Positions 5,124-47,760 of a stretch of 64,000 bases of DNA are shown piece by piece. Under the pieces are notes generated by a model that had not been told where the DNA came from, searched no databases, and was given only the letters and a program-made list of their open reading frames with translations. The stretch comes from Spirochaetaceae bacterium. Lineage in GTDB: Bacteria; Spirochaetota; Spirochaetia; Treponematales; Breznakiellaceae. The DNA lies in contig JAITCP010000157.1 of the NCBI GenBank assembly GCA_031283025.1, forward strand, positions 3,175-67,174, given 5' to 3'. A program made the position numbers and the translations under genes. Positions within the stretch are counted from its first letter, which is position 1. Every line of letters starts with the position of its first letter.

Positions 5124-5163
5124 TATTAGAGTTATTCAAAAACTTCAGTTTTTGAATAATTCT
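5124..5163. repeat. AAAAC-loop-GTTTT hairpin element, subtype 1 (reverse orientation)
   Basis: attagagttattcaaaaac ttca gtttttgaataattct, downstream of gene 5256..5855. Confidence 0.8.
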
Positions 5164-5255
5164 ATTCTTAAAAAATTAAGAATCATGTTGTTTAAGCCTC
5201 ATGGCATATTCCTCATTCCCCAGGAATTTCTCACAAAGGAGGGGTTTACATTTTT

Positions 5256-5855
5256 TTATGTTTCCTGTATTTTAATCGGCGGCTTTATAAATACATTGAA
5301 AACTTTGCTGTTGTTATTAATTTCAAACTCCAATTTATCATAGTCATTGTTAAAAGAAGCAGAAATTATATGTTTGCCGTTTTCAATTTTAATGATTTTT
5401 TCCTCACCATTTTCCAATTGAAAACTTTGATTATCAAGCCTTATATCAGCCAATAACGCCGATCCAATAACGCTCTTTAATCGAATAATTTTTATTTGGT
5501 TGTTTGGCAAAGGAATGACTGGATCACTTTTTTTGGATTCATTGTTTTTCCCTTCCCTTTGATTATCAACTGAAATATCATTTATTCCTAAATGCTTTTT
5601 TAACAATGCAGTTTGTTCTTCTGTGTTTTTTTCTATGCTAAGAATGGTTGTAATAAACCCTCCGCCAACAATATCTGTCAAAAGTCCGCAGAGTGAACCA
5701 ATTATTACCCCCAAAAAAGCATACTCGCCAGCCTTCCCATTTAACTGGCCAAGATAATAACCAACAATCCCTCCGGCGATGGCGGACAGAATCAAGTTAA
5801 TCCAAAGAATCACAACAATGCCATTACGAAAAGCCTTTTTTACAAAATCCAACAT
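5256..5855 (-). CDS. Small membrane protein (two Gly-rich TM helices plus soluble beta-rich C-domain)
   Basis: ORF-track ORF 5256..6008. Start moved to ATG 5855 (MLDFVKKAFRNGIVVILWINLILSAIAGGIVGYYLGQ...GVIIGSLCGLLTDIVGGGFITTIL), which has AAGGA 5 nt upstream. The extra N-terminal 51 codons run through a highly palindromic non-coding region. Confidence 0.6.
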   Translation of the reverse strand: MLDFVKKAFRNGIVVILWINLILSAIAGGIVGYYLGQLNGKAGEYAFLGVIIGSLCGLLTDIVGGGFITTILSIEKNTEEQTALLKKHLGINDISVDNQREGKNNESKKSDPVIPLPNNQIKIIRLKSVIGSALLADIRLDNQSFQLENGEEKIIKIENGKHIISASFNNDYDKLEFEINNNSKVFNVFIKPPIKIQET

Positions 5856-5890
5856 ACAATTCCTTTTACGTTTAAAGTCCGTTTGACTAT

Positions 5891-6039
5891 TAATTAGAGT
5901 TTGTCCATAATGTAGACACATTATGGACCCGGACTGGTAGTCCGCGACTGCCTTATAAATCACATTTTCGCAGCATAAAAGCTGCGAAAATGCAAGGTCT
6001 GGCCGCAAAGCAACCGACTTTTTGGACAGACACTAATTA
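5891..6039 (-). other. Highly structured leader/intergenic segment (17-nt inverted repeat enclosing three perfect hairpins)
   Basis: taattagagtttgtcca (5891-5907) vs tggacagacactaatta (6023-6039) pairs 15/17. Inner hairpins: gtccataatgt/acattatggac (5903-5928), ggact/agtcc (5931-5943), attttcgcagc/gctgcgaaaat (5964-5991). Confidence 0.5.
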
Positions 6040-6062
6040 GCGCCAACGGCGCATTTCATACC

Positions 6063-6872
6063 TTACTGCTTTACACCCCGGCGGAAATCAATGTCGGCTT
6101 TGCCGTTTGTAATCTGCACATTCTTGAACAGGAAGTGATCTTGATAAGGGCTCAAACCTATGGTTATGAAAGATAAGGCAGAAGTCCTTTCTTTGCCGTT
6201 GCCTAAATGAACCATAATATCCTTTGCTCCGGTAAAGGTGTAGGATATATATTTGTCACCTTCTTTCGGATAAATCTTGCCCGTTATGGTGCCGTTACTG
6301 ACGGTTAAGTTACGCAAAGGCGTATCCACTACAGCGGTAGCGGAGAGGCCCTTCCACCCAATATCAATTTCAGCCTCGCGTCCGTTGTACTCGGCGGGAA
6401 TATCGGTAACGGTTATGTAACCGGCCTTTGCCGCATTGTTCCACTGCACCGCCGCCACGCCGTTCTCGAATGTTACCGATTCGAAGACGGCATCGGTACC
6501 CATACTAAGCCCACCAGAAGTAGAATAGAAGCGGATTTCGATAGCGGGGACGGTATCATTGCCGGCGTAGCCATCGGGCTTGCTAAAGGGGTTGGACAAA
6601 AGCGATTTGGCATAATATATCAGCAGTTTGACTTCGCCATTCTTGACAGCCGTGTCTTCAACAGTAATATCGGATTTTTTCCCTTGGTTGTTGGTGACGG
6701 AGATACGGAATACATTCCATGAGACTAATTTGCCCTCGTACTCCGCAGGGATGCCGGTAATGGTCAAGGTTCCCGGGGGCGCTGTCTCGCCGCCGCCCAT
6801 ACTGGCGCATCCGATAAAAATACATACCGCTATAGTGAGCGGTAATCCGATTGTAAACAGTTTGTTTTTCAC
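6063..6872 (-). CDS. Lipoprotein with two internal repeats (GxxTxTxIPAEYxG...)
   Basis: ORF track 269 aa. Lipobox: MKNKLFTIGLPLTIAVCIFIGCASMGG. Duplicated motif GTLTITGIPAEYEGK / GYITVTDIPAEYNGRE. Family not recognised. Confidence 0.75.
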   Translation of the reverse strand: MKNKLFTIGLPLTIAVCIFIGCASMGGGETAPPGTLTITGIPAEYEGKLVSWNVFRISVTNNQGKKSDITVEDTAVKNGEVKLLIYYAKSLLSNPFSKPDGYAGNDTVPAIEIRFYSTSGGLSMGTDAVFESVTFENGVAAVQWNNAAKAGYITVTDIPAEYNGREAEIDIGWKGLSATAVVDTPLRNLTVSNGTITGKIYPKEGDKYISYTFTGAKDIMVHLGNGKERTSALSFITIGLSPYQDHFLFKNVQITNGKADIDFRRGVKQ

Positions 6873-6964
6873 AACTGTCTCCTTTTTCCGGCCTTAAAAC
6901 CGGGTAATTGTTTGCCGCCCATACGGGCAACAATAAACTCAGGCCCCAGTAAGAAGCCAATAGA

Positions 6965-6997
6965 CTTGTTCAAGAACCCGGTTGGTTCTTGAACAAG
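6965..6997. repeat. AAAAC-type hairpin element, subtype 3 (CGGTT loop)
   Basis: cttgttcaagaacc cggtt ggttcttgaacaag, perfect 14-bp stem. Confidence 0.8.
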
Positions 6998-7001
6998 TTA
7001 A

Positions 7002-7022
7002 GCAAAATACTGCGTATTTTGC
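7002..7022. repeat. Short perfect hairpin between two family elements
   Basis: gcaaaatac tgc gtattttgc. Confidence 0.6.
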
Positions 7023-7030
7023 AGTTTTTA

Positions 7031-7073
7031 ATAGGAAGTTGTTCAGAAACTGAAGTTTCTAAACAACTCTAAT
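7031..7073. repeat. AAAAC-loop-GTTTT hairpin element, subtype 1
   Basis: ataggaagttgttcagaaac tgaa gtttctaaacaactctaat. Confidence 0.8.
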
Positions 7074-11002: not shown

Positions 11003-11698
11003 ATGGCATCTTATGAAAAGCCAGATTTTTGGGCGCTTAAAGCTCAAAAAGAAGGGTATCCTGCCCGTTCGGTTTACAAACTCAAGGAAATCGATGACAA
11101 GTATCATCTTTTTAAACCGGGAACAAGCCGGCTTGTTCCAGGCTTGCCTGAGCCGGGTATACGGATTTTAGAGTTGGGCGCTGCTCCGGGAAGCTGGAGC
11201 CTCTATGTGCTGCGCTTGTACGCAAAAACCGGAAAACCAGCCGCTTTGCCCGGGGGCAGGTCTGGTTCCGCAGAAAATGCTATCTTACTGGCGGCGGCGG
11301 ATTTACTTCCCCTTTCCCGGCGTTTTGACGGCGGTCTCTTTGACCGGAAGGATTTTTTCTTTATTCAGGGCGATTTTACGGAGAGTGCGGTAAAGGGCGA
11401 ACTTACCCGCCGGGGGCCCTATACAACGATTATCAGTGATGCTGCTCCCGCAACAACCGGCATCCGGACCGTAGACACCCTGCGCTCGCTGGCCCTGGCG
11501 GAGGAAGTTGTTTTGTCCTATGCGGAAAAAAGCCTTGCGCCCGGTGGGAATTTGGCGCTCAAGGTTTTTCAGGGGGCGGACACCGCTGCCCTGCTCAAAC
11601 GGCTAAGGGAGCAATTTAATAACGTAAAAAGTTTTAAACCTGTCGCCTGCCGCAGTGATTCCTTTGAAACGTATTATATCGGGCTTGGAAAAAGGTAA
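11003..11698 (+). CDS. rlmE: 23S rRNA (uridine-2'-O)-methyltransferase RlmE/FtsJ
   Basis: ORF track 231 aa: ARSVYKLKEIDDKYHLFKPG..ILELGAAPGSWSLYV...FIQGDF...IISDAAPATTGIRTVD...LKVFQG. Has an Ala/Gly-rich insertion after the SAM motif. Confidence 0.85.
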   Translation: MASYEKPDFWALKAQKEGYPARSVYKLKEIDDKYHLFKPGTSRLVPGLPEPGIRILELGAAPGSWSLYVLRLYAKTGKPAALPGGRSGSAENAILLAAADLLPLSRRFDGGLFDRKDFFFIQGDFTESAVKGELTRRGPYTTIISDAAPATTGIRTVDTLRSLALAEEVVLSYAEKSLAPGGNLALKVFQGADTAALLKRLREQFNNVKSFKPVACRSDSFETYYIGLGKR

Positions 11699-11740
11699 TA
11701 GGAAGTTATTTGAAAACTGAAATTTCAAAATAACTCTAAT
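11698..11740. repeat. AAAAC-loop-GTTTT hairpin element, subtype 1
   Basis: ataggaagttatttgaaaac tgaa atttcaaaataactctaat. Begins within the rlmE stop codon. Confidence 0.8.
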
Positions 11741-11827
11741 ATGTACACCGATGTAAAAAACGGTTATACTTTATGATAGACAGGATTATAAAAGACTATT
11801 TTTAAAAAGTCGATTATGGAGGTTTTT

Positions 11828-12541
11828 ATGTGTAAATTGTTTTTTTCCGGGAATATGCGAAGAATTTATACGTTGGGAATTTTTTTGATCTGCGGGCTGC
11901 TGTTAATCAGCGCGGATGATTGTGAAAGTATGTATTTGGAAGAATTGCAGATGTCCCAAGCTCAGGCTGGTTATGGGCAAGGTTCCACCGCCCCAACGGT
12001 TTCTGCAACACCAGTGGTTGCCGCCGCACCGGCTGCCATCGAACCAGCCGCCGCCGATACATCGGCGGCTTCCACCGCCCAGCAATCCAATCAAGGCGGG
12101 GCCGATTCCGCCACTGTTGCTGCCCCAGAGGCTCCTTCAGCAAGTACCGGAGCGGATTTTCTTAAAACGATTATTGGCAAAGAATGGAAACTTGTGGAAC
12201 TACGCCTTTCAGGTAAGAGCCTTTTTCTTGACAGAAACAAGCTAAACTCCGAAGGGGCAGGTGATTATTTTACCATGACGATAGATAATTCCAGGTTAAG
12301 CGGAAGAGCGGCGCCTAACCGGTATACCACGGCGTATCAGGCTGGTTCCAATAATTCTTTGACTCTGCTGCCCGTTGTAACAACCTTAATGGCGACAAGT
12401 CATGATCCGGAACGTCTTCAGGAGCGGGAGTATTATCAGTACCTTGCAGGGGTAAATAGCTGGAAATCGAACCAGAAAACACTGGAACTTTATACCACCG
12501 ATGCCAATAAAAAGGAAGCGGTTCTGGTTTATAGTAACTGA
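11828..12541 (+). CDS. META (HslJ-like) domain secreted protein
   Basis: ORF-track ORF 11816..12541. ATG 11828 follows GGAGG. N-terminal hydrophobic segment RRIYTLGIFLICGLLLISADDC, then an Ala/Pro/Ser-rich linker. META-like: GKEWKLVELRLSGKSLFLDRN...FTMTIDNSRLSGRAAPNRYTTAYQAG..NSLTLLPVVTTLMA. Confidence 0.75.
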   Translation: MCKLFFSGNMRRIYTLGIFLICGLLLISADDCESMYLEELQMSQAQAGYGQGSTAPTVSATPVVAAAPAAIEPAAADTSAASTAQQSNQGGADSATVAAPEAPSASTGADFLKTIIGKEWKLVELRLSGKSLFLDRNKLNSEGAGDYFTMTIDNSRLSGRAAPNRYTTAYQAGSNNSLTLLPVVTTLMATSHDPERLQEREYYQYLAGVNSWKSNQKTLELYTTDANKKEAVLVYSN

Positions 12542-12546
12542 GCCAT

Positions 12547-12571
12547 TTCCAAAACCCGGTTGGTTTTGGAA
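12547..12571. repeat. AAAAC-type hairpin element, subtype 3 (CGGTT loop)
   Basis: ttccaaaacc cggtt ggttttggaa. Lies between the convergent META gene and the Rpn gene. Confidence 0.8.
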
Positions 12572-12599
12572 CAGCATCAACTGAGCATACAGAAAGGTT

Positions 12600-25290: not shown

Positions 25291-25507
25291 TAAACGGTTT
25301 TTTAGCGAAATTAGCCCAAATTCTTGTATTTTTAACAGAAATTTCCCGAAATTTATTTGTTTTTTACAATAATTATACGAAAACTACTTGCGGATTTACT
25401 ATTATTGATATATAAATAATATATAGAAGATTTTCCTAAACTTAAGTACCTTCGGTACCCGGGTTTTGGAAAAGCCTCTATAAACAAGGCTTTAAGGAGT
25501 AATTAAC

Positions 25508-35513: not shown

Positions 35514-35514
35514 A

Positions 35515-35551: not shown

Positions 35552-35560
35552 TAGACTTTA

Positions 35561-35586: not shown

Positions 35587-35603
35587 CCCACAGGAGGATT
35601 ACT

Positions 35604-36926
35604 TTGAAAAAAATTACCATTGGAAAATCTACCTTTCCAAAACTAACCGAGTTTTGGAAATGGCCCATTGCTCTTGGAGGATTTTCCAAAACTTCAGCTT
35701 TTGGAAAATCTACCTTAGATTTAAAGGAAAAACTGTCCTTTTGGACAGTTTTTCCAAAGCCATTTCCAAAACTAACCGAGTTTTGGAAATGGCCCATTGC
35801 TCTTTTACTTGCGGCGTTAACCTTTCCGGCTTTTTCCGGCGATTGGGAGATAAGCGGCGAGGCAAAAACCGGCTTTCTGTGGGAAAAGACCGAAAAAGTC
35901 GGAAAAGACCCGGAAGAAAAAGTACGGCTTGGCAGCCTTGACGACGCGGGAGACGATCAAGGGCGTTTCCGGCTTAATTTGGAATATACGGAAGGCAATG
36001 TAGGTTTTAAAATACGCATAGAATATGACAAATGGGCTGAGGGCGGCCCCAGCAAATGGCCGTGGTCTTATGCCTTTGGGTACGTCAACAGTTTTGAAGA
36101 CCAACTGACGTTTTCCATCGGCAAGCTTGGCTCATCCCCCTGGGGAACAGGCGGCCCTGAAAAATGGAAAGAGCTGGAAGTAATGGACAAGGGCGGCGGC
36201 GTGCGCGTTGAATATAAGCCCTACTACCTGCCCGGCTTAAACGTAGGCTTTGTCCTTAACTGGTTTAACGGCAGCAGTGATCGCGGATATAGCCGCAATC
36301 CTACCATATTGGACTTGCTGCAGGAATCAGTCCTTGGTGTGTCGTATGTGAATGATTATTTTCTATTCCGCTTTGCCTACCGTCTTGACAATGAGCTTGA
36401 CCAGCGTCCCGGCAGCGGTATTGTTGTTCCACGGGAAGGCGATGATCTCATTTACCGCATAGAAGAAAAGGTTTTGAACAATTACCTGAAAGGCTTAAAA
36501 ATTTGGGCGTTAGGCGTTTATGAAGGCGTAGGTTCCGAGGATGACAGTTGTATCCACTTTGAAAACTGGCTGTTTACCGAATTCGCCCCCGAATGGTTTA
36601 CCGCGCAAATCCGCTTTGGTTACGACGTTATTGCGACACGGAGCGTTGTGCACTTAAAACCCAGTTATTATCATCACTTTTTTGACAGATTTTTAACTCT
36701 GGGAGCGTCGTTCTTATGGGCGCAGGATTTTGGCGACTCCAAGGTATATCCCGGCTCTCCGTACTGGAAAATGGAGCTTGAACCAAAAGTCCAGCTTAAC
36801 TTTCAAAACGCCTACATCGCTTTTGTGTATATCATGAACAGGGAATACATACATGAAACCCCGTTAGCCGATCCCCCCATAAACCAAACGCAAAGAATGA
36901 ACCTGCGCTTTGGAATGTGGTTCTAG
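35604..36926 (+). CDS. Putative outer-membrane beta-barrel protein (OMP-2), with remodelled 5' end
   Basis: ORF-track ORF 35571..36926. The ATG at 35571 lies in the loop of a GC-rich terminator hairpin. In-frame TTG 35604 has AGGAGG 5 nt upstream. The mature part parallels OMP-1 (WEISGEAKTGFLWEKTEK...MNLRFGMWF). The N-terminal region contains an in-frame 129-nt duplication made of hairpin elements. Confidence 0.6.
   Translation: MKKITIGKSTFPKLTEFWKWPIALGGFSKTSAFGKSTLDLKEKLSFWTVFPKPFPKLTEFWKWPIALLLAALTFPAFSGDWEISGEAKTGFLWEKTEKVGKDPEEKVRLGSLDDAGDDQGRFRLNLEYTEGNVGFKIRIEYDKWAEGGPSKWPWSYAFGYVNSFEDQLTFSIGKLGSSPWGTGGPEKWKELEVMDKGGGVRVEYKPYYLPGLNVGFVLNWFNGSSDRGYSRNPTILDLLQESVLGVSYVNDYFLFRFAYRLDNELDQRPGSGIVVPREGDDLIYRIEEKVLNNYLKGLKIWALGVYEGVGSEDDSCIHFENWLFTEFAPEWFTAQIRFGYDVIATRSVVHLKPSYYHHFFDRFLTLGASFLWAQDFGDSKVYPGSPYWKMELEPKVQLNFQNAYIAFVYIMNREYIHETPLADPPINQTQRMNLRFGMWF
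35634..35675 (+). repeat. 42-nt direct repeat copy 1 (contains family hairpin tttccaaaac taaccga gttttggaaa)
   Basis: Identical to 35763-35804. Offset is 129 nt (43 codons, in frame). Confidence 0.9.
35680..35710. repeat. AAAAC-type hairpin element inside the OMP-2 5' coding region
   Basis: gattttccaaaa cttcagc ttttggaaaatc, perfect 12-bp stem. Confidence 0.8.
35726..35755. repeat. Perfect hairpin inside the OMP-2 5' coding region
   Basis: ggaaaaactgtcc tttt ggacagtttttcc, perfect 13-bp stem. Confidence 0.8.
35763..35804 (+). repeat. 42-nt direct repeat copy 2
   Basis: tttccaaaactaaccgagttttggaaatggcccattgctctt. Encodes FPKLTEFWKWPIAL, running directly into the hydrophobic signal-peptide core. 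Confidence 0.9.
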
Positions 36927-36972
36927 CTTTTCTCCCTTTTTTTACCACGGATTACACAGAGTAATTCGCAGT

Positions 36973-37020
36973 AAATAGGAAGTTGTTCAGAAACTGAAGT
37001 TTCTGAACAACTTCCTATTT
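36973..37020. repeat. AAAAC-loop-GTTTT hairpin element, subtype 1, perfect 22-bp stem
   Basis: aaataggaagttgttcagaaac tgaa gtttctgaacaacttcctattt. Lies between convergent OMP-2 and AraC and overlaps the AraC stop codon. Confidence 0.9.
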
Positions 37021-37807: not shown

Positions 37808-37950
37808 TTCAACAAATGATGCCACATAAAAAACATCCAAAAATCGGAACTTTACCTAAATATATGTTTTATATGTGGCAATCTATACGGTACGAATTTT
37901 TGAAATGTTTAAGTGTTTACATTTTGGGCAAAATTTGCTATATATGGGGT

Positions 37951-39045: not shown

Positions 39046-39760
39046 ATCTTTTATTTTGGCAAAAAAAGAACTTTTTTCTCTGTTCAATTCACCGGCTTTT
39101 TACGGGATATGCCTTTTCTTTACCGTTTTTTGTTCAATTTGGCTTTTCTATCTGCGCCGCTTCTTTACCCTGAACATGGCAAACCTGCGGCCTTATTTTG
39201 ATGTTTTTCCCGTAGCCTTTATCCTGGTGATCCCCATGATTACCATGAAATCCTGGGCGGAGGAACGGAAGCTGGGGAGCATAGAGCTGCTCCTCACCAT
39301 GCCTTTTTCTGAGTGGGAACTGGTGCTGGGGAAATTCATTGCCGCATTTGGGGTGGTGCTCCTTCTCCTGGGGTTAAGCCTTCCCGTGCCGTTGAGCATA
39401 CTCCCCCTGGGCCGCTTTGATCCGGGGATACTGGCGGGCGAATACATTGGCTCCCTCCTCCTTGGCGCGTCGGCAGCCGCGCTGGGGCTCCTCCTTTCAA
39501 GCCTGTCCAAAAATCAGGCCGGAGCTTTTTTGGGGAGCCTTGCCGTTCTCCTCTTTACCATGCTGGTAAACCAGCTTACCGTCTCAATTTCACTTCCGCC
39601 CGCCATAGCGGAACTGATCAACTTTTTTTCCCTGGCATTCCACTTTGACAGTTTTTCCAAAGGGATCATAGACTCAAGGGATTTGGCCTTTTTTGTGATC
39701 GCTACGGTATTGTTCTTGTTCCTTAATACCCGCGTAATTTTACAGAGGAAATGGAGTTAA
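39032..39760 (+). CDS. ABC-2 type transporter permease (GldF-like)
   Basis: ORF track 242 aa with multiple hydrophobic helices. Starts inside the end of the ATPase gene (14-nt overlap). Confidence 0.8.
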   Translation: MEIRKSFILAKKELFSLFNSPAFYGICLFFTVFCSIWLFYLRRFFTLNMANLRPYFDVFPVAFILVIPMITMKSWAEERKLGSIELLLTMPFSEWELVLGKFIAAFGVVLLLLGLSLPVPLSILPLGRFDPGILAGEYIGSLLLGASAAALGLLLSSLSKNQAGAFLGSLAVLLFTMLVNQLTVSISLPPAIAELINFFSLAFHFDSFSKGIIDSRDLAFFVIATVLFLFLNTRVILQRKWS

Positions 39761-39764
39761 TACT

Positions 39765-41420
39765 ATGACTAAAAAACAACACACGATTCTTGCCTCTCTT
39801 AGCATTATTATTATGGTACTGCTCATCTTGTTAAGCCGCCGCCTTTGGGTTCGATTGGACATGACATCAAACAAGGCCTACACCCTTTCCCCTGCATCCC
39901 GGAATCTTCACAATGAAATAGAAGAGACCATGAGGATAACCTACTATCTTTCCAATAAACTCCTGTCCATTGATCCGACTCCCTCAGAAATCACCGACAT
40001 ACTCCGTGAATATGAGGCCCGCTCCAGGGGCAAAATTAAAGTAACGGTAAAGGATCCGGGAAAAGAAGCGCAAGATGCGGAACGTTACGGCCTTTACTCC
40101 CAACAGCTTCAAAACATTGAACAGGGGGAAGCAAGTTTTTCTGTAGTTTATTCAGGGATTGTGATTGAGTACCTTACCCGTTATGAAGCGCTGCCCTGGG
40201 TTTTTTCTCTGGATACCCTTGAGTATGACATAACCAGCCGCATCCGCTCTTTGGTGAACGGGAAACAGCGTGAACTTGGCGTCATCGCTCCCGAATACCA
40301 GAAAAGCTGGGGCGAATATTACAGCTTCTTTAGCCAGACACTCACTCAAGCGGGGTTTCTTGTTTTACAACTCCGGCCCGGTGAAGAAATTCCGGACACC
40401 CTGCCGGCCCTCTTTGTGCTGGGCGGGGCGGAAGAACTGGATGAAACCGCCCTGTACCGCATAGACCGTTACATACAGCTTGGCGGCAGGGTGTTTTTTG
40501 CGGTAGAAAGCGTTGAGGTGGATATTGTCAACACCTGGCAGGGCCGTCTTAAAGAAGACAAGGGCCTTTTGGCGATGATTTCTTATTACGGCGCCACGGT
40601 GGGCCAAAGCCTTGTGCTGGACAAAGCGTCCCTCGTTTTGCCCTTCCGTGATCCCATGAACCAGCAATTCCGCATGGTTCGTTATAATCCCTGGGTTGGC
40701 GTAATGGAAGACCGGGGTAACGAGACACATCCCCTTACTTCCGGTTTTGCCGGAGTAGACCTTTTCTGGGCCAGCCCCTTAACCCTTACCCTTCCTGAAT
40801 CCGGAACAGTAAAGGGAGAAGCGCTGTTCAGTTCCAGCCCGGAAGCCTGGCTTATGACGAACGATTATGCCTTACGGCCCGATCAAAGCGCCATGTTTGC
40901 CTATGGGTCGGAAGAAACCAGAGGAGAAAAAATACTCGCCGTCGCCCTGGAAGGAAAATTCCCCAGTTGGTTTGCCGGTGTAGAAAAGCCCGGCTCCAAA
41001 AAAAGCCCGGATGCCGAATCAGACGCAGCTTCACAGGACGATCAAGAGGACGATTATTACGCTGCGGAGGAACTTCCCGATATGCCGGCAACACCCAAGG
41101 ATTCCCGGATTATTGTTGTAGGCGATTCTGACATAGCGGGCTCCCTTATCCAGTACACTCAGAGCCAGCAAAGCATTAACCTGAATTTTCTGCTGCAGGC
41201 TGCGGACTGGCTGGGCAATGACGATGACATTGTAGGCATACGGAACCGCACAAGCGGAACAGGCCGCCTTGACCGCATTACAGACGGTGAAAAACGCTCC
41301 GCCTTGATGAAATTTTCCCGGATACTCAATGTATTTATTGTTCCCATTGCAATCATTATTTTTGGAATTTACCGGCTGGTAAAAAGAAACCGCAGAAAGG
41401 AGCTTGACCATGGTCTATAA
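39765..41420 (+). CDS. GldG-like ABC-transporter auxiliary protein (N- and C-terminal TM anchors)
   Basis: ORF track 551 aa. N-terminal TM ILASLSIIIMVLLILL, NKAYTLSPASRNL, C-terminal TM FIVPIAIIIFGIYRLV. Gene order ATPase-permease-GldG is typical of this module. Confidence 0.75.
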   Translation: MTKKQHTILASLSIIIMVLLILLSRRLWVRLDMTSNKAYTLSPASRNLHNEIEETMRITYYLSNKLLSIDPTPSEITDILREYEARSRGKIKVTVKDPGKEAQDAERYGLYSQQLQNIEQGEASFSVVYSGIVIEYLTRYEALPWVFSLDTLEYDITSRIRSLVNGKQRELGVIAPEYQKSWGEYYSFFSQTLTQAGFLVLQLRPGEEIPDTLPALFVLGGAEELDETALYRIDRYIQLGGRVFFAVESVEVDIVNTWQGRLKEDKGLLAMISYYGATVGQSLVLDKASLVLPFRDPMNQQFRMVRYNPWVGVMEDRGNETHPLTSGFAGVDLFWASPLTLTLPESGTVKGEALFSSSPEAWLMTNDYALRPDQSAMFAYGSEETRGEKILAVALEGKFPSWFAGVEKPGSKKSPDAESDAASQDDQEDDYYAAEELPDMPATPKDSRIIVVGDSDIAGSLIQYTQSQQSINLNFLLQAADWLGNDDDIVGIRNRTSGTGRLDRITDGEKRSALMKFSRILNVFIVPIAIIIFGIYRLVKRNRRKELDHGL

Positions 41421-42375
41421 AAAAAAGTTAATCATTTTGGGAGCGTCGGCGGTTTTTTTGGCCCTGGTGTATCTTGTAACGCTTTTCTTTGATCCCAGCC
41501 GGATAAATGCCCGCAATGAACGCTTTACCTGGCTTCCCCCCGGCGCGCGGGAAGAAGCGGACAAAATAGAAATAAGCGGCAGCAGTGATGAAAAATTTGA
41601 ACTTGTTTTGCGGCACGACAGATGGTTCGCCCTTCTGGATGGAACCGGCGGGCCTCAGGAAGTGCCCGTTAAGCAGGGCAGGGTAGATGACATTTTCCGG
41701 CTTCTTGGCACCCGCGGGGCCTTCCCCCGCCGTGGTTCCTCCGCCTCAAGCCACAAGAACTTGGGCCTTACAACTGACGGTTACCGCTTGATTATTCGGG
41801 GCGGGGCGGGACTCCCCCTCCTTGATCTGCTGATAGGCCAGGATGATGTTTCCGGCAAAGAGGTGTTCCTGCGTAAAAACGGAGAAAATGAATTCCGTTC
41901 AGGAGACAGGCTAATCGGTTCCTATGTAAAGGCGGATAAAAATTCATGGTACGATCTAAAATTGTTTGATGAAGCTTCTGTTGAACAGGTTCAGCGTGTG
42001 CGGGTAACCTTTTTAGACTACTCAGGCCCGGAAGATGAAACCCCGTTAATCGGCTACATTGACTACAATATAACCCGCAGCGCGGAAAACTGGATCATGG
42101 AAGGGGATTCTACCCCCCTGGACAAAGACAAAACAGAAACATGGATACGGGGAATTCTGGAAGTCCAGGGCGACAATTTCCTGTCCCCTCAGAATGATTT
42201 TACCGCCGCCAGAATAGTCGTAGAACTGGGAGACGGCTCAACACTTAGATTGCAGATAGGAGAAGCAATAGAAGACGGGAAAGCCCCCGCCTTAACCGGT
42301 AATAAACCGTATGTGTATTCGCTTCCACGCTGGACGGCTACCCGCATCCTCCGTGAACGGGGATATTTTAATTAG
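41410..42375 (+). CDS. DUF4340-like protein (usual fourth gene of GldA/F/G-type modules)
   Basis: ORF-track ORF 41404..42375 starts at TTG. ATG 41410 (MVYKKKLIILGASAVFLALVYLV) follows AGGAG. Single N-terminal TM. Assignment rests on position and size. Confidence 0.6.
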   Translation: MVYKKKLIILGASAVFLALVYLVTLFFDPSRINARNERFTWLPPGAREEADKIEISGSSDEKFELVLRHDRWFALLDGTGGPQEVPVKQGRVDDIFRLLGTRGAFPRRGSSASSHKNLGLTTDGYRLIIRGGAGLPLLDLLIGQDDVSGKEVFLRKNGENEFRSGDRLIGSYVKADKNSWYDLKLFDEASVEQVQRVRVTFLDYSGPEDETPLIGYIDYNITRSAENWIMEGDSTPLDKDKTETWIRGILEVQGDNFLSPQNDFTAARIVVELGDGSTLRLQIGEAIEDGKAPALTGNKPYVYSLPRWTATRILRERGYFN

Positions 42376-42396
42376 GAAACGCCGGCATATTCAATG

Positions 42397-42430
42397 GGTA
42401 TCTCTAAAAATTTCAGTTTTTAGAGATACC
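42397..42430. repeat. AAAAC-loop-GTTTT hairpin element, subtype 2 (reverse orientation)
   Basis: ggtatctctaaaaa tttcag tttttagagatacc, perfect 14-bp stem. Flanked on both sides by tcaatg. Lies between convergent genes. Confidence 0.85.
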
Positions 42431-42437
42431 TCAATGT

Positions 42438-44162
42438 TTAGATTCGCTTTCGGATAAAGTCACGGTACTTTTCAGGATCGCTCTTAAACGCCATAATGGG
42501 CGATTGATCTTCTTCCCGGGCTTTTTCCAGCGCCCGTGCGGCTTCCAGTAAAAGCCGCTCCGCGTCAATTAAACGCCCTGACCGGGAACTCATGCCAATC
42601 AGGAAATCGTTATTGTTGTGGAAAGAATCATAACAGGTTTTATAGATCCGGTTACGGAATTTTTCCGCCATGGCAATTCCCTGGTTTATATCTCCGTTGG
42701 GAATAATCACGGTAAACCCGCGGTCTTTGTATTCAAAAGTTAAGTCCTTTAAATTAAACAAATCCACCGCTTCATCCGCAATTTTTCTGTAAAGTTTACT
42801 GTCGCAGTTAACGTCATCTCCGCATACCATAAGCAGCAGCACCAGGTCTTGTTCCGATGCGGCGGAGCGGTGAAGTTCGGATGCAAGCCTGTCATGAGTA
42901 TAGGCTTCCCATCCTATATTGCTCCGCGGCGAATAAAGACCGTTTGGGCTTTTCGTTGACGGCTGGGCGGGAATATCTACAGTTTCGGAAAGAACATACA
43001 CGCCTGAATCAAACGAATTTTCATCTTCAGCGCCTGAATCTGAAATTTCAATATCCTCAAAATTTTCGCTGTCATTAAAATCATCTTTGAAATTAAAATC
43101 ATCGGTATTATTAAAATTGTCTTCTTCACTAAGTTCGGCGCTCTGAATTACGGCAAGTTCGGGAAGCGCCAAATCGTTTTCATCAAGAAAATCATCCAGA
43201 TGAAAGTCGTCTGCGGCCATTTCTGTATCTTTCTCTGTGGGCAAGGCGCTATAATCCTCAAAATCCGGAATTTCAAAATCATCGTCCAACGCGCCGGTTT
43301 CCGCTAATCCGCCGGTTCCCGACAAATCGCCAATTTCTTCCGCATCGTTCATTTCCGGCATATCATCAAGTACCGGTGTATTATCAAATGACGGTGTATC
43401 ATCAGATGCCGGCACATCATCAAGTGCCGGTGTGTCGTCAAATGCCGGCGCATCGTCAAATGCCGGCACATCATCAAGTGCCGATGTGTCGTCAAATGCC
43501 GGCATATCATCAAGTGCCGATGTGTCTTCAAATGCCGGTGTGTCTTCAAATGCCGGTGTGTCGTCAAATGCCGGCACATCATCAAATGCCGGCACATCAT
43601 CAACAACCCGCATATCATCAGGGATTTTATTTTTCGAGGTTTCTGAAGAATTCAGTATGGTAACAATCATCGTAAAGAAAGAAAGAATCAACGCGGCAAG
43701 AATAGCCAGCATGGTTTGTTTGAGCACGCCGGTCAGGTAGTGAAAGTTCAGAATATTACCGATTGAATGAATAACCACATTCCGGAATCCGGGAATGGTT
43801 ACATCCTTTGCCGGAAGTCTGATGCAGCCAAAGCGGGATGTAAATTGAAGGCCGTTATTCCATTTAATCGCGTTTCCCTTTTCTTTTTCAAATCCCAGAT
43901 TTATCCCGGGGTCTCCGGTAATGATGATCCCCTCAATAACGTTACATTCCCGCAGGTTTTTATTGATTTCTTCCCTGAAAGGTTCCGAAAAGAACGACTC
44001 CCCGCTGCCGGCGATAAGGCTGTGCATTTTAGTCAATTCATGTCCGGCTATTTGCTGCTGTTCTTGTATGTTGATAAAAACCCGGTAAGCCGCAAAAAGC
44101 ACGGCAGCTACATAAACGAGTATACAAAGTAACGCTAAAACAGCCGGAAACTTGCTCTTCAC
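42438..44162 (-). CDS. Two-TM membrane protein with 15 acidic hexapeptide repeats and a degenerate GGDEF-like C-terminal domain
   Basis: ORF track 574 aa, GTG start with GAGGG upstream. TM1 aa 5-27, TM2 aa ~150-170. DD(V/T/M)PAF-type repeats at aa ~182-272. C-terminal DLVLLLMVCGDD...LTFEYKDRGFTVIIPNGDINQGIAMAEKFRNRI resembles a GGDEF fold with the GG(D/E)EF motif replaced by KDRGF. Confidence 0.7.
   Translation of the reverse strand: MKSKFPAVLALLCILVYVAAVLFAAYRVFINIQEQQQIAGHELTKMHSLIAGSGESFFSEPFREEINKNLRECNVIEGIIITGDPGINLGFEKEKGNAIKWNNGLQFTSRFGCIRLPAKDVTIPGFRNVVIHSIGNILNFHYLTGVLKQTMLAILAALILSFFTMIVTILNSSETSKNKIPDDMRVVDDVPAFDDVPAFDDTPAFEDTPAFEDTSALDDMPAFDDTSALDDVPAFDDAPAFDDTPALDDVPASDDTPSFDNTPVLDDMPEMNDAEEIGDLSGTGGLAETGALDDDFEIPDFEDYSALPTEKDTEMAADDFHLDDFLDENDLALPELAVIQSAELSEEDNFNNTDDFNFKDDFNDSENFEDIEISDSGAEDENSFDSGVYVLSETVDIPAQPSTKSPNGLYSPRSNIGWEAYTHDRLASELHRSAASEQDLVLLLMVCGDDVNCDSKLYRKIADEAVDLFNLKDLTFEYKDRGFTVIIPNGDINQGIAMAEKFRNRIYKTCYDSFHNNNDFLIGMSSRSGRLIDAERLLLEAARALEKAREEDQSPIMAFKSDPEKYRDFIRKRI
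43347..43619. repeat. 18-nt tandem repeat x ~15 (coding, acidic hexapeptides)
   Basis: Units of the type catcatcaagtgccggtgt / gtcgtcaaatgccggcgc. Encodes DDVPAF DDVPAF DDTPAF EDTPAF EDTSAL DDMPAF ... on the minus strand. Confidence 0.9.
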
Positions 44163-44221
44163 TATTGTGCCCTCACAAGTTTATTATATACGTCTTTTCA
44201 TTTTTTTGCTAGGTTTATTAC

Positions 44222-45127
44222 ATGAATTTAAGAAAACCATGCCTTCCGCCGCTTTGGTATCCCGGCGATCCTGACGGAATAGGCAATTTTTTGAGTGATT
44301 ATTGCGATGGAGGAGGGAAGGCACGTACCCTTTCCGCCGGGACGGTAATTGCGGCCGTTGCTCCTCATGCGGGGTGGTACTATTCCGGGGCCATTGCCGC
44401 CCAGGCGGTGGCAGCTCTTTCCGGGCAGGTTGCGGCGGCAGGGCAGGGGAGTGAGCCGGATACGGTAGCCGTTATCGGAGGACACCTGCCCCAGGGGATG
44501 CCGGCCCTTTTTGCCATGGAAGATGCGGCGGATACTCCTTTGGGCCCCATGGAGATAGACGGCGAGATCAGGGACACCCTTTGCACCCGCCTGCAGGAAA
44601 CCGGCATCCTCCGGCCAGCCCCTGACCGTTACCAGGATAACACTGTGGAGGTTCTGCTCCCCATGGTCAGATACTTTTTCCCGCAGGCAAAACTCCTGTG
44701 GATGCGGCTCCCCGCAGACATCTGTTCCTTTGAGGTGGGAAAGCTCCTGGCCCGGACCGCCGCTTCTTTGGGGCGGAAATTCCTGGTTTTAGGTTCCACC
44801 GATTTAACCCACTACGGGCATCATTACGAGTTTATTCCTCATGGTTCCGGTAAAGCGGCCCTGGACTGGGTAAAAAACGTTAACGACCGCCGCTTTATTG
44901 ACGCGGCGGAAGCGGGAGACGCCGCCGCAGTGCTGGCCCGTGCCGGGGAAGAACGCTCCGCCTGTTCCGCCGGAGCCGTCCTGGGAGTAATGGGCTATGC
45001 AGCGGAACTCCGGGGCACGCAGTCCGGCAGCAGCGGGAAACTCCTTGCCTACGGAACCAGCGCGGATGCCGGTGATGGGGGCGTGCCCGATTCTTTTGTC
45101 GGTTACGGAGCCTTTGTGTGGATGTAA
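44222..45127 (+). CDS. Memo-like protein (AmmeMemoRadiSam system protein B family)
   Basis: ORF track 301 aa: VIAAVAPHAGWYYSGAIAAQA, VIGGHLP, LGSTDLTHYGHHY, SACSAGAVLGVMGYA. Confidence 0.8.
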   Translation: MNLRKPCLPPLWYPGDPDGIGNFLSDYCDGGGKARTLSAGTVIAAVAPHAGWYYSGAIAAQAVAALSGQVAAAGQGSEPDTVAVIGGHLPQGMPALFAMEDAADTPLGPMEIDGEIRDTLCTRLQETGILRPAPDRYQDNTVEVLLPMVRYFFPQAKLLWMRLPADICSFEVGKLLARTAASLGRKFLVLGSTDLTHYGHHYEFIPHGSGKAALDWVKNVNDRRFIDAAEAGDAAAVLARAGEERSACSAGAVLGVMGYAAELRGTQSGSSGKLLAYGTSADAGDGGVPDSFVGYGAFVWM

Positions 45128-45183
45128 ACGCACATGGGGATTTCCCTCCACGTGAAGAAAGCGGGGAAATATTCGGATAAGAC

Positions 45184-45266
45184 TTCACGCAGAGCACGCC
45201 AGGGCGCAGGGTACGCAAAGCTAATCCTTTAGTATTTCCTTTGCGATCTCAGCGTCTTTGCGTGAA
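45184..45266. repeat. TTCACGCAGAG-type structured element (second copy)
   Basis: ttcacgcagag (45184-94) pairs with ctttgcgtgaa (45256-66). Inner hairpin cgcaaag..ctttgcg. Shares gaagacttcac(g/a)cag and agcgtct(t/c)tgcgtgaaaa with the 18846-18960 element. Confidence 0.5.
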
Positions 45267-45304
45267 AAAAATACAGTAGTTCCCTGCGTAAGAAGACGGG
45301 AGTT

Positions 45305-45347
45305 ATTAGAGTTGTTCAAAAACTTCAGTTTTTGAACAACTTCCTAT
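45305..45347. repeat. AAAAC-loop-GTTTT hairpin element, subtype 1 (reverse orientation)
   Basis: attagagttgttcaaaaac ttca gtttttgaacaacttcctat. Abuts the pgi stop codon. Confidence 0.85.
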
Positions 45348-46933
45348 TAAAACTGCACCCCCAATAATTCGCTGTACGCGTCCAGAGCGCCGTCGCCGGA
45401 AGTGCCTGCCAGGACTTTTTTGGTAAGCATCTTTCCCAACTGCACGCCTTCCTGATCAAAGCTGTTAAGGTTCCACACAAAGCCCTGGAACATCACCTTG
45501 TTTTCATAGTGGGCCAAAAGGCTCCCCAGGGCTGCGGGAGTGAGCTGTTTTCCGTGGATAAGGCTTGAGGGGCGGCCCCCGGGGAACAACTTGTTTTTGT
45601 CGCTGTCGTCCTTTCCTTTGGCAAAGGCGACGATCTGGGCGGCAAGGTTGGCTTTAAGTTTGGTCTGGCTTACCGAACCGTCTACTTCAACGTCGTCGTC
45701 CCGCTGGCTGTTGGTAAAACCGGCAAACTGCAAGGGGATAATGTCCGTCCCCTGGTGAAGAAGCTGGTAGAACGAATGCTGCCCGTTGGTGCCCGGTTCG
45801 CCGAAAACCGCCGGCCCTGTGGCATAGGCCAGTTCAGCGCCGGAACGGTTGACCCGCTTGCCGTTGGATTCCATGTCCAACTGCTGTAGATGGGCGGGGA
45901 AGCGGGAAAGAGCCTGGCTGTAGGGAAGCACCGCCGTAGCCGGGTACCCTAAAAAGTTCCGCTCCCAAACGCCAAGCAGCGCGTCCAGCAGCGCCGCATT
46001 TTTCCGTATGTCCTTTTCCAGGGCGCATATATCCGCCTCATGAGCGCCGGAAAGGAATTCGGCAAATACGGCGGGGCCAAAGGCCAGGGAAAGGATCACC
46101 CCCCCTACTGCGGAGGTGGAGGAATAGCGGCCTCCGATAAAATCGTCTATATAAAAAGAATCCAAATAGGCCGGATTGCGGGCAAGGGGGCTGGTTTCAC
46201 TGGTTACCGCCGCCATGTGTTTACCCGGATCAAGGCCCGCCTTTGCCAGTTTGTCTTTTACAAAAAGTTCGTTGGCCAGGGTTTCCTGGGTTGTGCCGCT
46301 TTTGGACACAAGAACAAAAACCGTTTCCGCCAAATCAAGCGAACCAACAACGGCGGAAGCGTCATCGGGATCAACGTTGGATATAAAGTAAGCGTTGAGC
46401 TTTTTGTGCCCGTTTTTGGCCGCCCAATTATCCAGGGCAATGTACATGGCCCGCGGGCCCAGATCCGACCCGCCTATGCCGATCTGCACGGCGTTTTTGA
46501 AAGGTTTGCCGGAAGCGCCGCGGACTTGTCCCGCACGCACCGCCTCAGCAAAAGCGGAAAACCGGCCCAATTCGTTCGTGTAAAATTCCCCCAAATTCCG
46601 CCCTTCGTGGATCACCGGCTTGCCCGATTGCCCCCGCAGCAGATGGTGGAGAACACGGCGCTTCTCTCCGGTGTTCATCACTTCCCCATCCAAAAGGGCC
46701 TGGTACTTAAGTATTAGTTCCTGTTCGTCCGCCAGGGATTGGAGGGCCGCCAGCGCCGGTTCGTCCGCCGCCTTGGCCGCCCAGTTGTAGGAAAGGCCGG
46801 CAGCCATGGGAACGGTACAGGCCTTTACCCGATCCGCGGTAAGCGCCGCGGCAAAATCAAAATGCTTCCCCGCCGGAGCAAGGGATTGCAGCGTTTTCCA
46901 CGCGGCGGTTTTATCAAAATCGGTATAGTTCAT
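45347..46933 (-). CDS. pgi: Glucose-6-phosphate isomerase
   Basis: ORF track 528 aa: VQIGIGGSDLGPRAMY, VLVSKSGTTQET, GGRYSSTSAVG, DMESNGK, GEPGTNGQHSFYQLLHQGT. Confidence 0.95.
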   Translation of the reverse strand: MNYTDFDKTAAWKTLQSLAPAGKHFDFAAALTADRVKACTVPMAAGLSYNWAAKAADEPALAALQSLADEQELILKYQALLDGEVMNTGEKRRVLHHLLRGQSGKPVIHEGRNLGEFYTNELGRFSAFAEAVRAGQVRGASGKPFKNAVQIGIGGSDLGPRAMYIALDNWAAKNGHKKLNAYFISNVDPDDASAVVGSLDLAETVFVLVSKSGTTQETLANELFVKDKLAKAGLDPGKHMAAVTSETSPLARNPAYLDSFYIDDFIGGRYSSTSAVGGVILSLAFGPAVFAEFLSGAHEADICALEKDIRKNAALLDALLGVWERNFLGYPATAVLPYSQALSRFPAHLQQLDMESNGKRVNRSGAELAYATGPAVFGEPGTNGQHSFYQLLHQGTDIIPLQFAGFTNSQRDDDVEVDGSVSQTKLKANLAAQIVAFAKGKDDSDKNKLFPGGRPSSLIHGKQLTPAALGSLLAHYENKVMFQGFVWNLNSFDQEGVQLGKMLTKKVLAGTSGDGALDAYSELLGVQF

Positions 46934-46983
46934 GGATAAAAGTATACCGTAAAAGAGAAAAAGCCGCTATAAGGCATTTTGTC

Positions 46984-47616
46984 CTAGAAAGCTACGCCAA
47001 GCCTAAAACCAAAACGGAGTAATTTTACTCCCAGACACCAGCCAACAAAGTTACTCGAAATTATGTCCATTTTGTCAAAGGGAATATCAGAGTATAGAGG
47101 CCATGCAAAGTCCAGGGTTGGTTCCATGACAAACGCAACCCGGCCGCTTCCATACACCATTTTATTTCCGGCGCCGATATATAAGCCAAATGTATTTAGA
47201 CTATCGCTGCCGCTAAAATCAGCGCCGGAATAATTCATTGAAGCAGAGACTCCGAATTGGTGAAAAAACAGGCCGCCGTTCAGGAAGAATCCTTTTACAT
47301 ATTCTTGTGAAGGATACCAGCGTCCTTCAAGACTGAAACGGAGGAAATGAATATCATAATTGCTGCTATCGCTGCTCGTATCAAACCATTTTGTGGGGTC
47401 AAACTTAAAAAAGTAAAAACTGGTTTTTACTGAAGCCATACTAACCGGGGCATACTCTAACCCTGCATCAATGCCGACGCCTCTGAGTAATAGCCCGCCT
47501 ATAAAGGGAAAAGGATTAAAGGTAACCGCCATTTTTTGTTCTCCATCCCATTCTGCTTGGGCAAAAACCGGGGCGGCTATAATGAAAACCGCCAAAAATA
47601 CAAGAATCTTTTTCAT
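46984..47616 (-). CDS. Small outer-membrane beta-barrel protein
   Basis: ORF-track ORF 46984..47652. ATG 47616 follows AGGAG (MKKILVFLAVFIIAAPVFAQAEW...). Alternating aromatic/Gly strands, C-terminal ...RLGVAF. Confidence 0.7.
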   Translation of the reverse strand: MKKILVFLAVFIIAAPVFAQAEWDGEQKMAVTFNPFPFIGGLLLRGVGIDAGLEYAPVSMASVKTSFYFFKFDPTKWFDTSSDSSNYDIHFLRFSLEGRWYPSQEYVKGFFLNGGLFFHQFGVSASMNYSGADFSGSDSLNTFGLYIGAGNKMVYGSGRVAFVMEPTLDFAWPLYSDIPFDKMDIISSNFVGWCLGVKLLRFGFRLGVAF

Positions 47617-47645
47617 ACAGTAACTCCTATAGACTATAAATTTAG

Positions 47646-47680
47646 GGAACATCTAAAAACCGGTTGTTTTTAGATGTTCC
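47646..47680. repeat. AAAAC-type hairpin element, subtype 3 (CGGTT loop)
   Basis: ggaacatctaaaaac cggtt gtttttagatgttcc, perfect 15-bp stem. Confidence 0.85.
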
Positions 47681-47730
47681 TTTGCAGCTTCTCGCCCTTT
47701 GGGCTGCGAAACGTGCGTTTTTCAGCGGTA

Positions 47731-47760
47731 AATCTCTAAAAACTGAAGTTTTTAGAGATT
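47731..47760. repeat. AAAAC-loop-GTTTT hairpin element, subtype 2
   Basis: aatctctaaaaac tgaa gtttttagagatt, perfect 13-bp stem. Lies downstream of the 910-aa gene. Confidence 0.85.

Follow-up and report, generated by a model that had tools for sequence, protein, structure and literature searches.

The window analysed here is a stretch of 64,000 nt from contig JAITCP010000157.1 (C66) of a Spirochaetaceae bacterium, whose assembly is a Treponema-like metagenome-assembled genome (MAG) of 2.15 Mb, 189 contigs and 49% G+C, scored 65% complete. Among its genes, mostly in the gaps between them, lie short AU-rich hairpins, which are the subject of this work. An earlier note, made from the letters of the window alone, had listed 14 copies, and all are indeed present: a near-perfect hairpin with an ...AAAAC/GTTTT... 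apex and a loop of the TGAA/TTCA or CGGTT type was found at 14 of the 14 positions. Their number is far above chance, AAACTGAAGTTT occurring 9 times in the window with at most one mismatch, for 0.54 expected and a maximum of 4 in dinucleotide-preserving shuffles. Most of the hairpins are not free-standing; they are the end modules of composite repeats of ∼110-120 nt. Several listed copies are the two ends of one composite (at 6962-7070, 35677-35795 and 47645-47763), and the 14 hairpins correspond to 11 element loci in the window (Table 1).

The same hairpins are found throughout the assembly. Words drawn from them are its commonest 10- to 20-mers, with GTTTTTAGAG alone present 356 times. Pairing of the 10 bases on either side of CTGAAG is bimodal genome-wide, at least 8 of the 10 pairs being formed at 210 sites while the background peaks at 2-3. 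A stricter hairpin test yielded 416 calls in 235 loci (some hairpins fit two loop definitions and were counted for both), whereas the reversed genome gave 0. Depending on the method of detection, the number of loci ranges from ∼235 to 308. They cover 23 kb, which represents 1.1% of the assembly, and the element family makes up 8.5% of the non-coding DNA of the genome. Twenty-two contig ends fall within an element, and the elements break short-read assemblies.

Outward extension of the hairpin alignments delineated three related composites, called A, B and C, plus solo and truncated derivatives. The order of the modules is a left hairpin (arm-CGGTT-arm'), a central GC hairpin and a right hairpin (arm-TGAA-arm'). 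In family A (119 nt), GGGAACCTCTAAAAAC-CGGTT-GTTTTTAGAGGTTCC is followed by TTTGCAGTTTCTCGCCCTTTGGGCTGCGAAACGTGCGTTTTTCAGCGG and then by TAAATCTCTAAAAAC-TGAA-GTTTTTAGAGATTCCC. Family B (108 nt) is made of AGACTTGTTCAAGAAC-CCGGTTG-GTTCTTGAACAAGT, then TAAGCAAAATACTGCGTATTTTGCAGTTTTAATAGGA, then AGTTGTTCAAAAAC-TGAA-GTTTTTGAACAACTCT, and family C (119 nt) of GAGCCATTTCCAAAAC-TCGGTTA-GTTTTGGAAATGGCT, a centre with AAAACTGTCC-AAAA-GGCCAGTTTT, and AGCTTTTCCAAAAAC-TGAA-GTTTTGGAAAAGCCTC. A blastn search with the consensus sequences returned 115 full-length copies (61 A, 45 B and 9 C), with mean identities of 97.4%, 96.5% and 94.4%, respectively. All three composites end in terminal inverted repeats (TIRs), GGGAACCTCTAAAAAC ... 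GTTTTTAGAGATTCCC for A, AGACTTGTTCAAGAAC ... GTTTTTGAACAACTCT for B and GAGCCATTTCCAAAAC ... GTTTTGGAAAAGCCTC for C, which are of equal length and have the inner ...AAAAC in common; the 16-nt arm of family A is GGGAAYCTCTAAAAAC. No open reading frame (ORF) was found in the elements, whether full (108-119 nt, entirely made up of the three hairpins) or solo (36 nt). Folded as RNA or single-stranded DNA, the full elements form three independent hairpins, with energies of −49 to −52 kcal/mol and z-scores of −7.5 to −10.

Each end of an element consists of the TIR present twice, as a perfect local hairpin, hence four transposase sites per element. Almost every TIR copy in the genome has an inverted partner 4-7 nt away, the exception being an insertion sequence (IS) end in contig C81, described below. 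The co-variation of the arms had first been taken as a sign of selection on structure rather than of simple copying. This does not hold between families: the five arm types then reported are the TIRs of A, B (two sub-variants) and C, and their differences are no evidence of selection on an RNA structure, because a TIR and its inverted copy are complementary by construction. Within families, some compensated changes do exist, and we return to them when weighing the interpretation.

Three types of derivatives were found: right-end fragments with a ragged left boundary, solo hairpins of symmetric build (for example GGGAATCTCTAAAAAC-TGAA-GTTTTTAGAGATTCCC, of 36 nt), and elements with modules swapped between families. 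In some hairpins, arms of different families are joined at the common apex (B/A in C100, C/B in C18, C/A in C24). Chimeric elements were seen at C100:4934, C18:3435, C24:20857, C52:7194 and C168:4755; some are such two-family hairpins, and others join the left half and centre of B to an A-type right hairpin. These chimeras suggest recombination at the common AAAAC-TGAA-GTTTT apex, or nested insertion followed by deletion. The loop, or spacer, is occasionally inverted inside an otherwise oriented element (4 of ∼50 A and 3 of 31 B).

The flanks of the elements bear the mark of transposition. Target-site duplications (TSDs) of 4 bp were scored for 37 of 49 full family-A copies, whereas permuted flanks gave 1.8 on average and 7 at most, the targets being AT-rich 4-mers within an AT-rich context. 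A 4-bp TSD was also found at 5 of 7 family-C copies, and an exact one at 8 of 18 symmetric family-A solos. In family B the duplication is 3 bp long, of the form A-N-T, at 38 of 41 copies (AAT 20, ATT 14, ACT 2, AGT 2), and its middle base always matches. The idea that the hairpins are DNA-uptake sequences was discarded on this ground, and because the over-represented words lie almost solely inside the palindromes.

Empty sites were sought by joining the flanks of each full copy and searching them against the genome. Two family-B copies of contig C117 have no counterpart in a paralogue of 92-97% identity in C150, which shows one AAT only at either site. The paralogues (C117:5700-6500 and C150:21300-21900) are a gene of the PD-(D/E)XK 'transposase' family (PF12784, 96 bits); in C117 this gene is interrupted by one of the two elements, and the other lies in the short gap before the start of the next gene. 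A nested case was found at C184:16495, where a family-A copy, flanked by duplicated TTCA, has gone into a family-B hairpin at its TTCA loop; removal of this copy restores the B hairpin. No orthologous empty site was scorable in four genomes of the same genus, whose coding DNA is 68-73% identical and in which the neighbouring gene differs and synteny is broken, and no paralogous empty site was found in the genome for the solo hairpins.

The family-A TIR is also the end of an IS. In the related genome G022, this 16-mer is present at both ends of a decayed element of 683 bp that retains remnants of a transposase, GGGTACCTCTAAAAAC ... GTTTTTAGAGGTACCC. Using these remnants as a query, we reached genome G020, where an open transposase frame comes after a left end, GGCACCTCTAAAAAC. 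Its product scores 241.8 bits with NF033581 (cut-off 140) and matches DUF772 (PF05598, E = 6e-25) and DDE_Tnp_1 (PF01609, E = 6e-16). Judging from these profiles, the transposase sharing the family-A TIR is of the IS5 family and of the DDE type. Among 151 genomes of the order searched with the IS5-family model, 10 gave matches above cut-off, with intact full-length copies in several. The complete genome G095 has a 1209-bp IS in up to 12 copies, with an intact ORF of 339 aa, TIRs GGGCACCTCTAAAAACC / GGTTTTTAGAGGTGCCC and 4-bp duplications such as ATTA and TAAA. In G077, which belongs to the same family as the genome of the window, the IS ends are GGGAACCTCTAAAAAC and GGGCATCTCTAAAAAC, and ATAT is duplicated. 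Overall, the intact IS of relatives measures 1209-1231 bp, with TIRs of 16-17 bp and flanks ATTA/ATTA, TAAA/TAAA or ATAT/ATAT, and both of its ends read GGG[C/A]A[C/T]CTCTAAAAAC.

In the genome of the window, tblastn with the intact transposase gave one weak match, at the extreme end of contig C81. This end reads ...TAATAA GGGAATCTCTAAAAAC CCTAGCTAAAATCTGAAAAACATGATTCAATATAAAGC ATG GAA CAG AAA GGA TTT TTT GAC..., where CCTAGCTAAAATCTGAAAAACATGATTCAATATAAAGC is 38 nt long, and its frame translates to MEQKGFFDENNRLWELSRLG, to be compared with MKQRGFFDEQDRLEELSRLG in G020. As read from these letters, C81:6391-6506 is the left end of an IS with the family-A TIR, which matches the outer arm of family-A hairpins at 16 of 16 positions. 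The first 60 nt of the transposase gene are present before the contig breaks off, and because the break falls inside the IS, the latter is probably multi-copy and unassembled. No other transposase of the same type was found in the assembly. DDE_Tnp_1 fragments in C6 and C178 were considered as partners and rejected, both being below threshold, and the IS end read at C6 did not match the hairpin arms. The C6 fragment (C6:1-520, 21.5 bits) is the C-terminal part of an unrelated IS4-like DDE_Tnp_1 transposase at the start of the contig.

The earlier note had described the elements as REP/MITE-like and advised a search for a RAYT-like gene. Repeats that are short, palindromic and intergenic, and that come as singlets and spaced pairs, do superficially recall the doublets or BIMEs of repetitive extragenic palindromes (REPs). 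They could in principle be REP/REPIN-type elements moved by RAYT (a Y1 HUH enzyme), or PATE-type derivatives of IS200/IS605, in either case acting on single-stranded hairpins. We consider this almost certainly not the case: no Y1_Tnp match (PF01797) was found in the assembly at 65% completeness, the family-A arms are the TIR of a DDE element of the IS5 family, and TSDs of 3-4 bp flank full and solo copies, whereas single-strand transposition by Y1 enzymes makes none. The other half of the description, which refers to MITEs (miniature inverted-repeat transposable elements), stands on the TSDs, the empty sites and the IS5-family parent.

We conclude, with a probability of about 0.85, that the hairpin elements are non-coding MITEs derived from IS5, and not a dedicated RNA or terminator system. 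They are short and non-coding, have TIRs and a TSD of fixed length, are dispersed as near-identical copies, and are found in filled sites with empty counterparts. A TIR shared with an autonomous IS was found for family A, and not for B and C. The partner has the DDE transposase, the length of ∼1-1.5 kb, the short TIRs and the 4-bp TSD of the IS5 family. The IS5 group, with E. coli IS5 as its prototype, consists of elements of ∼1.2 kb with 16-17-bp TIRs and a 4-bp TSD. The parent IS resembles it in these three traits and in having DUF772 and DDE_Tnp_1 above the NCBIfam IS5 cut-off, and families A and C similarly duplicate 4 bp in AT-rich targets. Unlike in the group at large, the TIR is lineage-specific, the MITEs have only this TIR in common with the IS, and they carry it twice per end. 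Family B differs further: the 3 bp (ANT) that it duplicates are a better fit to a different IS5 subgroup, and no partner was found for it.

In the mechanism that we propose, a hairpin would be a 16-nt TIR, a spacer of 4-7 nt and the same TIR inverted, and a full element would have one such hairpin on each side of a short central GC hairpin, hence four TIR copies. The elements would be moved in trans by an IS5-family DDE transposase recognising the TIR, and would insert into AT-rich, mostly intergenic sites, with duplication of 4 bp (A and C) or of 3 bp A-N-T (B). What had been called a conserved apex would be the conserved inner end of the TIR (AAAAC) together with the spacer, and the co-varying stems would be the different TIRs of different families. 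The arms would be complementary because each hairpin consists of two inverted copies of one transposase site. We infer that the IS with the family-A TIR, or a sibling of it, mobilises the elements, and that B and C have sibling IS partners, which for B, with its 3-bp TSD, could be members of another IS5 subgroup. Any effect on transcripts would then be a by-product.

Several points weigh against this interpretation. Mobility is deduced from TSDs, empty sites and nesting. The complete transposase gene of the IS is not assembled in this 65% complete MAG, where only its left end is present. At transposase loci of the IS5_4 type and of the DDE_Tnp_1_2 type, in up to 150 genomes, no IS ending in family-B or family-C arms was found; a B-like arm beside a truncated transposase (L063) was set aside as its orientation is wrong for an IS end. 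The interiors and loops of the MITEs have no similarity to the interior of the IS, and only the TIR is common to both. Between families, the arms are less conserved than the 4-nt TGAA spacer, which a plain model of TIRs plus neutral filler fails to predict. Finally, at position 10 of the B right hairpin, 32 copies have A:T, 12 have G:C and none has a single-arm state. Compensation of this kind suggests that a further force maintains the complementarity of the arms. At position 9 of the B left hairpin, A:T is found in 38 copies and G:C in 4, and at position 10 of the A left hairpin all four states occur (A:T 42, A:C 9, G:T 4 and G:C 2). The compensated changes may stem from a few founder events, or from arm-to-arm correction.

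In another explanation, a DNA cruciform, or a single-strand fold-back, would take part in the recognition, copying or homogenisation of the MITEs, the 36-bp palindrome being the mobile unit and the composite two units around a passenger. The TSDs of the 36-bp solos, the inverted partner close to nearly every TIR copy, the inverted loops, the compensated stem changes devoid of single-arm intermediates, the hairpins joining arms of two families at the shared apex, and the conservation of TGAA across families and genera would all fit. However, the solos could be internal-deletion products of full elements that kept the flanking TSDs, the compensated variants may each trace to one or two founder events, and the ends of the parent IS are ordinary and non-palindromic. 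To our knowledge, a hairpin-dependent step has no experimental precedent in the IS5 family, and we give very little credit to this explanation. Also quite unlikely, in our opinion, is a Treponema-wide superfamily dependent on the hairpin or cruciform, whose mobile and self-correcting unit would be the 36-bp palindrome, with its pair of IS5-type TIRs and its conserved spacer of 4 nt. If true, this palindrome would rank among the smallest transposable units described, and templating of one arm by the other would preserve complementarity, invert the loop and give rise to the inter-family chimeras.

Table 1. Elements of the MITE families in the window, with strand and surroundings.
Position	Strand	Element	Remarks
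5128..5163	-	Family-B solo hairpin, AGAGTTATTCAAAAAC-TTCA-GTTTTTGAATAATTCT	3-bp direct repeat ATT/ATT; minus-strand gene on either side
6962..7070	+	Full family-B MITE, 109 nt	blastn to B consensus 1-108, 96%; TSD AAT/AAT; left hairpin with CCGGTTG loop, central GCAAAATAC-TGC-GTATTTTGC, right hairpin with TGAA loop; earlier copies 6965 and 7031; intergenic between divergent genes
11701..11737	+	Diverged family-B-like right-module hairpin, GGAAGTTATTTGAAAAC-TGAA-ATTTCAAAATAACTCT	Directly 3' of the stop of gene 11003-11698
12540..12575	+	Lone family-C left-module hairpin, GAGCCATTTCCAAAAC-CCGGTTG-GTTTTGGAACAGC	C consensus 1-32, 94%; overlaps the stop codon of gene 11816-12541; convergent genes either side
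25432..25479	+	Degenerate family-C end	Absent from the earlier list; outer arm GTTTTGGAAAAGCCTC; GTACC-TTCG-GGTAC hairpin replaces the usual loop
35515..35551	+	Family-A solo hairpin, GGGAACCTCTAAAAAC-TGAA-GTTTTTAAGAGATTCCC	TSD TAGA/TAGA, takes in the TAG stop of the GH30 gene
35634..35666	-	Extra family-C left-module hairpin	Local tandem duplication of hairpin and flank ATTGCTCTT
35677..35795	-	Full family-C MITE, 119 nt	C consensus 3-119, 93%; within the 5' part of ORF 35571-36926; earlier copies 35680 and 35763, plus central hairpin 35726-35755
36973..37020	.	Family-B right-module palindrome, AAATAGGAAGTTGTTCAGAAAC-TGAA-GTTTCTGAACAACTTCCTATTT	Interior-type flank on both sides; 25-bp perfect arms; convergent genes
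42397..42430	-	Family-A-like solo hairpin, GGTATCTCTAAAAAT-TTCA-GTTTTTAGAGATACC	Flanking direct repeat TCAATG; convergent genes
45308..45356	-	Family-B right part, interior truncated	Consensus 59-108, 100% identical; convergent genes
47645..47763	+	Full family-A MITE, 119 nt	A consensus 1-119, 97.5%; TSD TTTA/TTTA; earlier copies 47646 and 47731; downstream of a 910-aa gene; ∼28 nt upstream of the likely start of the next gene (MKKILVFLAVF...)

The copies of the window are listed in Table 1. The conserved flanks ATAGGAAGTT...AACTCTAAT, ascribed earlier to one subtype of hairpins, correspond respectively to the interior side of the family-B right module and to its outer end with the TSD. Two of the full elements affect the reading of genes. 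Between 35604 and 35830, the full family-C element is accompanied by a 51-nt local duplication of an end hairpin and its flank, and the frame of ORF 35571-36926 stays open through both. The sole signal-peptide-like stretch of this ORF, IALLLAALTFPAFSG, comes after the insert, and no in-frame ATG, GTG or TTG is found immediately downstream of the element. From these three features, the ORF is either translated through ∼64 extra residues or inactivated. The longest ORF of gene 46984-47652 begins at an ATG inside the family-A MITE (47650-47652). Its true start is likely the ATG at ∼47614-47616 (MKKILVFLAVF..., with AGGAG before it), and the ATG carried by the MITE accounts for a false N-terminal extension.

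A rough gene call, based on ORFs scored by codon usage (1696 genes, 87% coding, 12.6% non-coding), served to place the elements relative to genes. The 235 loci were distributed as 26 inside a gene, 41 at a contig edge, 97 between tandem genes, 38 between divergent and 33 between convergent ones. Although 12.6% of the genome is non-coding, 89% of the placeable loci are intergenic. For the 168 classifiable intergenic loci, this gives 58/23/20% tandem, divergent and convergent, compared to 59/21/20% of the intergenic length. As these shares match, we conclude that the elements simply follow the available non-coding DNA. The earlier claim that they lie almost exclusively at 3' ends or between convergent genes is not borne out genome-wide. 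It reflects the window, where most copies are at 3' ends, though even there the full B element at 6962 is between divergent genes and the full C element in the 5' end of an ORF. In tandem spacers, a position 1-40 nt upstream of the next start is as frequent as one 0-6 nt beyond the preceding stop. Their orientation relative to the upstream gene is unbiased for A (9:10) and mildly biased for B (13:4).

These data bear on the possibility that the elements are RNA structures selected by the host, that is bidirectional terminators or terminators devoid of a U tract, or 3' stabilisers of mRNA, kept for shaping transcripts, mobility being only their means of arrival. Their strong folding into three independent hairpins would agree with this, as would the 3' position of most copies in the window, the orientation bias of family B and the many copies that begin 0-6 nt past a stop codon. 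Moreover, several families and genera have a T run after the central hairpin, in one and the same orientation of the element (GCGTTTTTCAG, GCAGTTTTAAT, GCGTTTTTTATC). Nevertheless, the context of the loci is that of the intergenic length, with 38 loci flanked by gene starts on both sides, the orientation of family A is unbiased, and copies just upstream of a start are about as many as those just after a stop. In addition, 26 loci are within predicted genes, and one of them disrupts the PDDEXK_2 gene mentioned above. Proximity to stop codons is in any case expected, because the preferred targets are AT-rich and TAA/TAG-like. We therefore consider a host-selected RNA role very unlikely.

The hairpins do not look like intrinsic terminators either. 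The GC-rich stem with a U tract is missing, since the end hairpins are AU-rich and no T run follows them, the T run being found only after the small central hairpin, in one orientation. Placement at 3' ends in the direction of transcription is not seen either, with the 38 divergent loci and the 9:10 orientation of family A. A simple terminator scan of 35000-48500 gave 26 sites for 21 expected, and did not call the central hairpin. No Rfam model matched the window at gathering threshold, and a permissive search around two full copies gave only chance-level scores (at most 24.6 bits, for gathering thresholds of at least 48). A role as terminator or stabiliser thus does not define the family, although there may be a side-effect on transcripts. 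The best candidate for this possible side-effect is the central hairpin with its T run, whose orientation is conserved across families and genera.

Ordinary terminators, with a GC-rich stem and a T run, adjoin MITE copies at 35557-35585 and 25183-25225 of the window. One of them, AGCCGGGCGC-TAT-GCGCCCGGTCTTTT, lies directly after the family-A solo at 35515. It seems that, where termination is required, an ordinary terminator is present in the genome besides the MITE copy. At the other side of genes, the end of many family-B copies lies 10-35 nt upstream of a start codon, immediately ahead of an AAGGAG ribosome-binding site (C90:7229, C146:893, C117:2128), and the outer arm of family B finishes with TTGAACA, a motif similar to a −35 box. 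These features and the 13:4 bias hint that B copies might act as outward-reading hybrid promoters.

Elements resembling family A were found in 17 of the 41 genomes scored, that of the window included, which belong to three families and comprise complete genomes of 2.8 Mb. Within the family to which the genome of the window belongs, 13 of 24 genomes have family B, compared to 0 of 16 searched from other families. Across several genera, in three families of the order, the tripartite architecture and the TGAA spacer are kept while the arms and centres have diverged, as seen with GGGAACCTCTAAAAAC-CCCATGG-... in G033, GGGCACCTCTAATAAC-TCGGTTA-... in G022 and C-like arms in G024. Genomes of the same genus are ∼70% identical in coding DNA. 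The exact 24-nt core CTCTAAAAACTGAAGTTTTTAGAG is present in at least 112 records, and the 80 listed among them are all Treponema, Spirochaetaceae or Spirochaetota MAGs; the sources of the MAGs among these 80 are rumen, termite gut and other guts.

Among known systems, the Correia elements (CREE/NEMIS) of Neisseria are also MITEs of ∼100-150 nt, present in hundreds of mostly intergenic copies, often beside genes, in full and internally deleted forms. They affect transcription and RNA processing as a side-effect. They differ in having one TIR per end, one long hairpin, a TA duplication and no known transposase partner, while the elements described here have a hairpin at each end, TSDs of 3-4 bp and a partner of the IS5 type; there is no sequence similarity. 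The pneumococcal BOX (boxA-boxB-boxC) and RUP elements, the enterobacterial BIMEs and the NIMEs/dRS3 of Neisseria are likewise modular short cassettes, shuffled between copies, intergenic and with a strong RNA folding potential. Unlike them, the present elements have explicit TIRs, TSDs and empty sites: BIMEs and REPs depend on RAYT or host factors and have no TSD, and BOX has no defined TIR/TSD signature of transposition.

No description of this particular MITE family was found in the literature searched, which yielded only a census of conserved MITEs (cMITEs) in prokaryotes (Nucleic Acids Res 2024, PMC11602168). In passages of this census, the Spirochaetes (Leptospira, Sediminispirochaeta, Treponema) appear as a MITE-rich cluster with an average of 145 cMITEs per genome, and ∼90% of bacterial cMITEs are given as intergenic, both of which match the present genome. 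These passages deal in counts, and hold nothing on the anatomy, the IS5 partner or the double-hairpin build of the present family.

The elements are thus a known kind of selfish DNA, and what is unusual is their double-hairpin build, with the TIR present twice per end. Recognising them prevents their misreading as riboswitches, small RNAs or terminators, and matters for annotation, as they create false extended ORF starts and can sit in or beside genes. They are a candidate source of promoters, terminators or RNase targets near genes. The four-TIR build and the 36-bp solos pose a small question in transposon mechanics. For gut, rumen, termite and oral treponemes, the family constitutes a defined MITE/IS5 pair, which could serve for strain typing.

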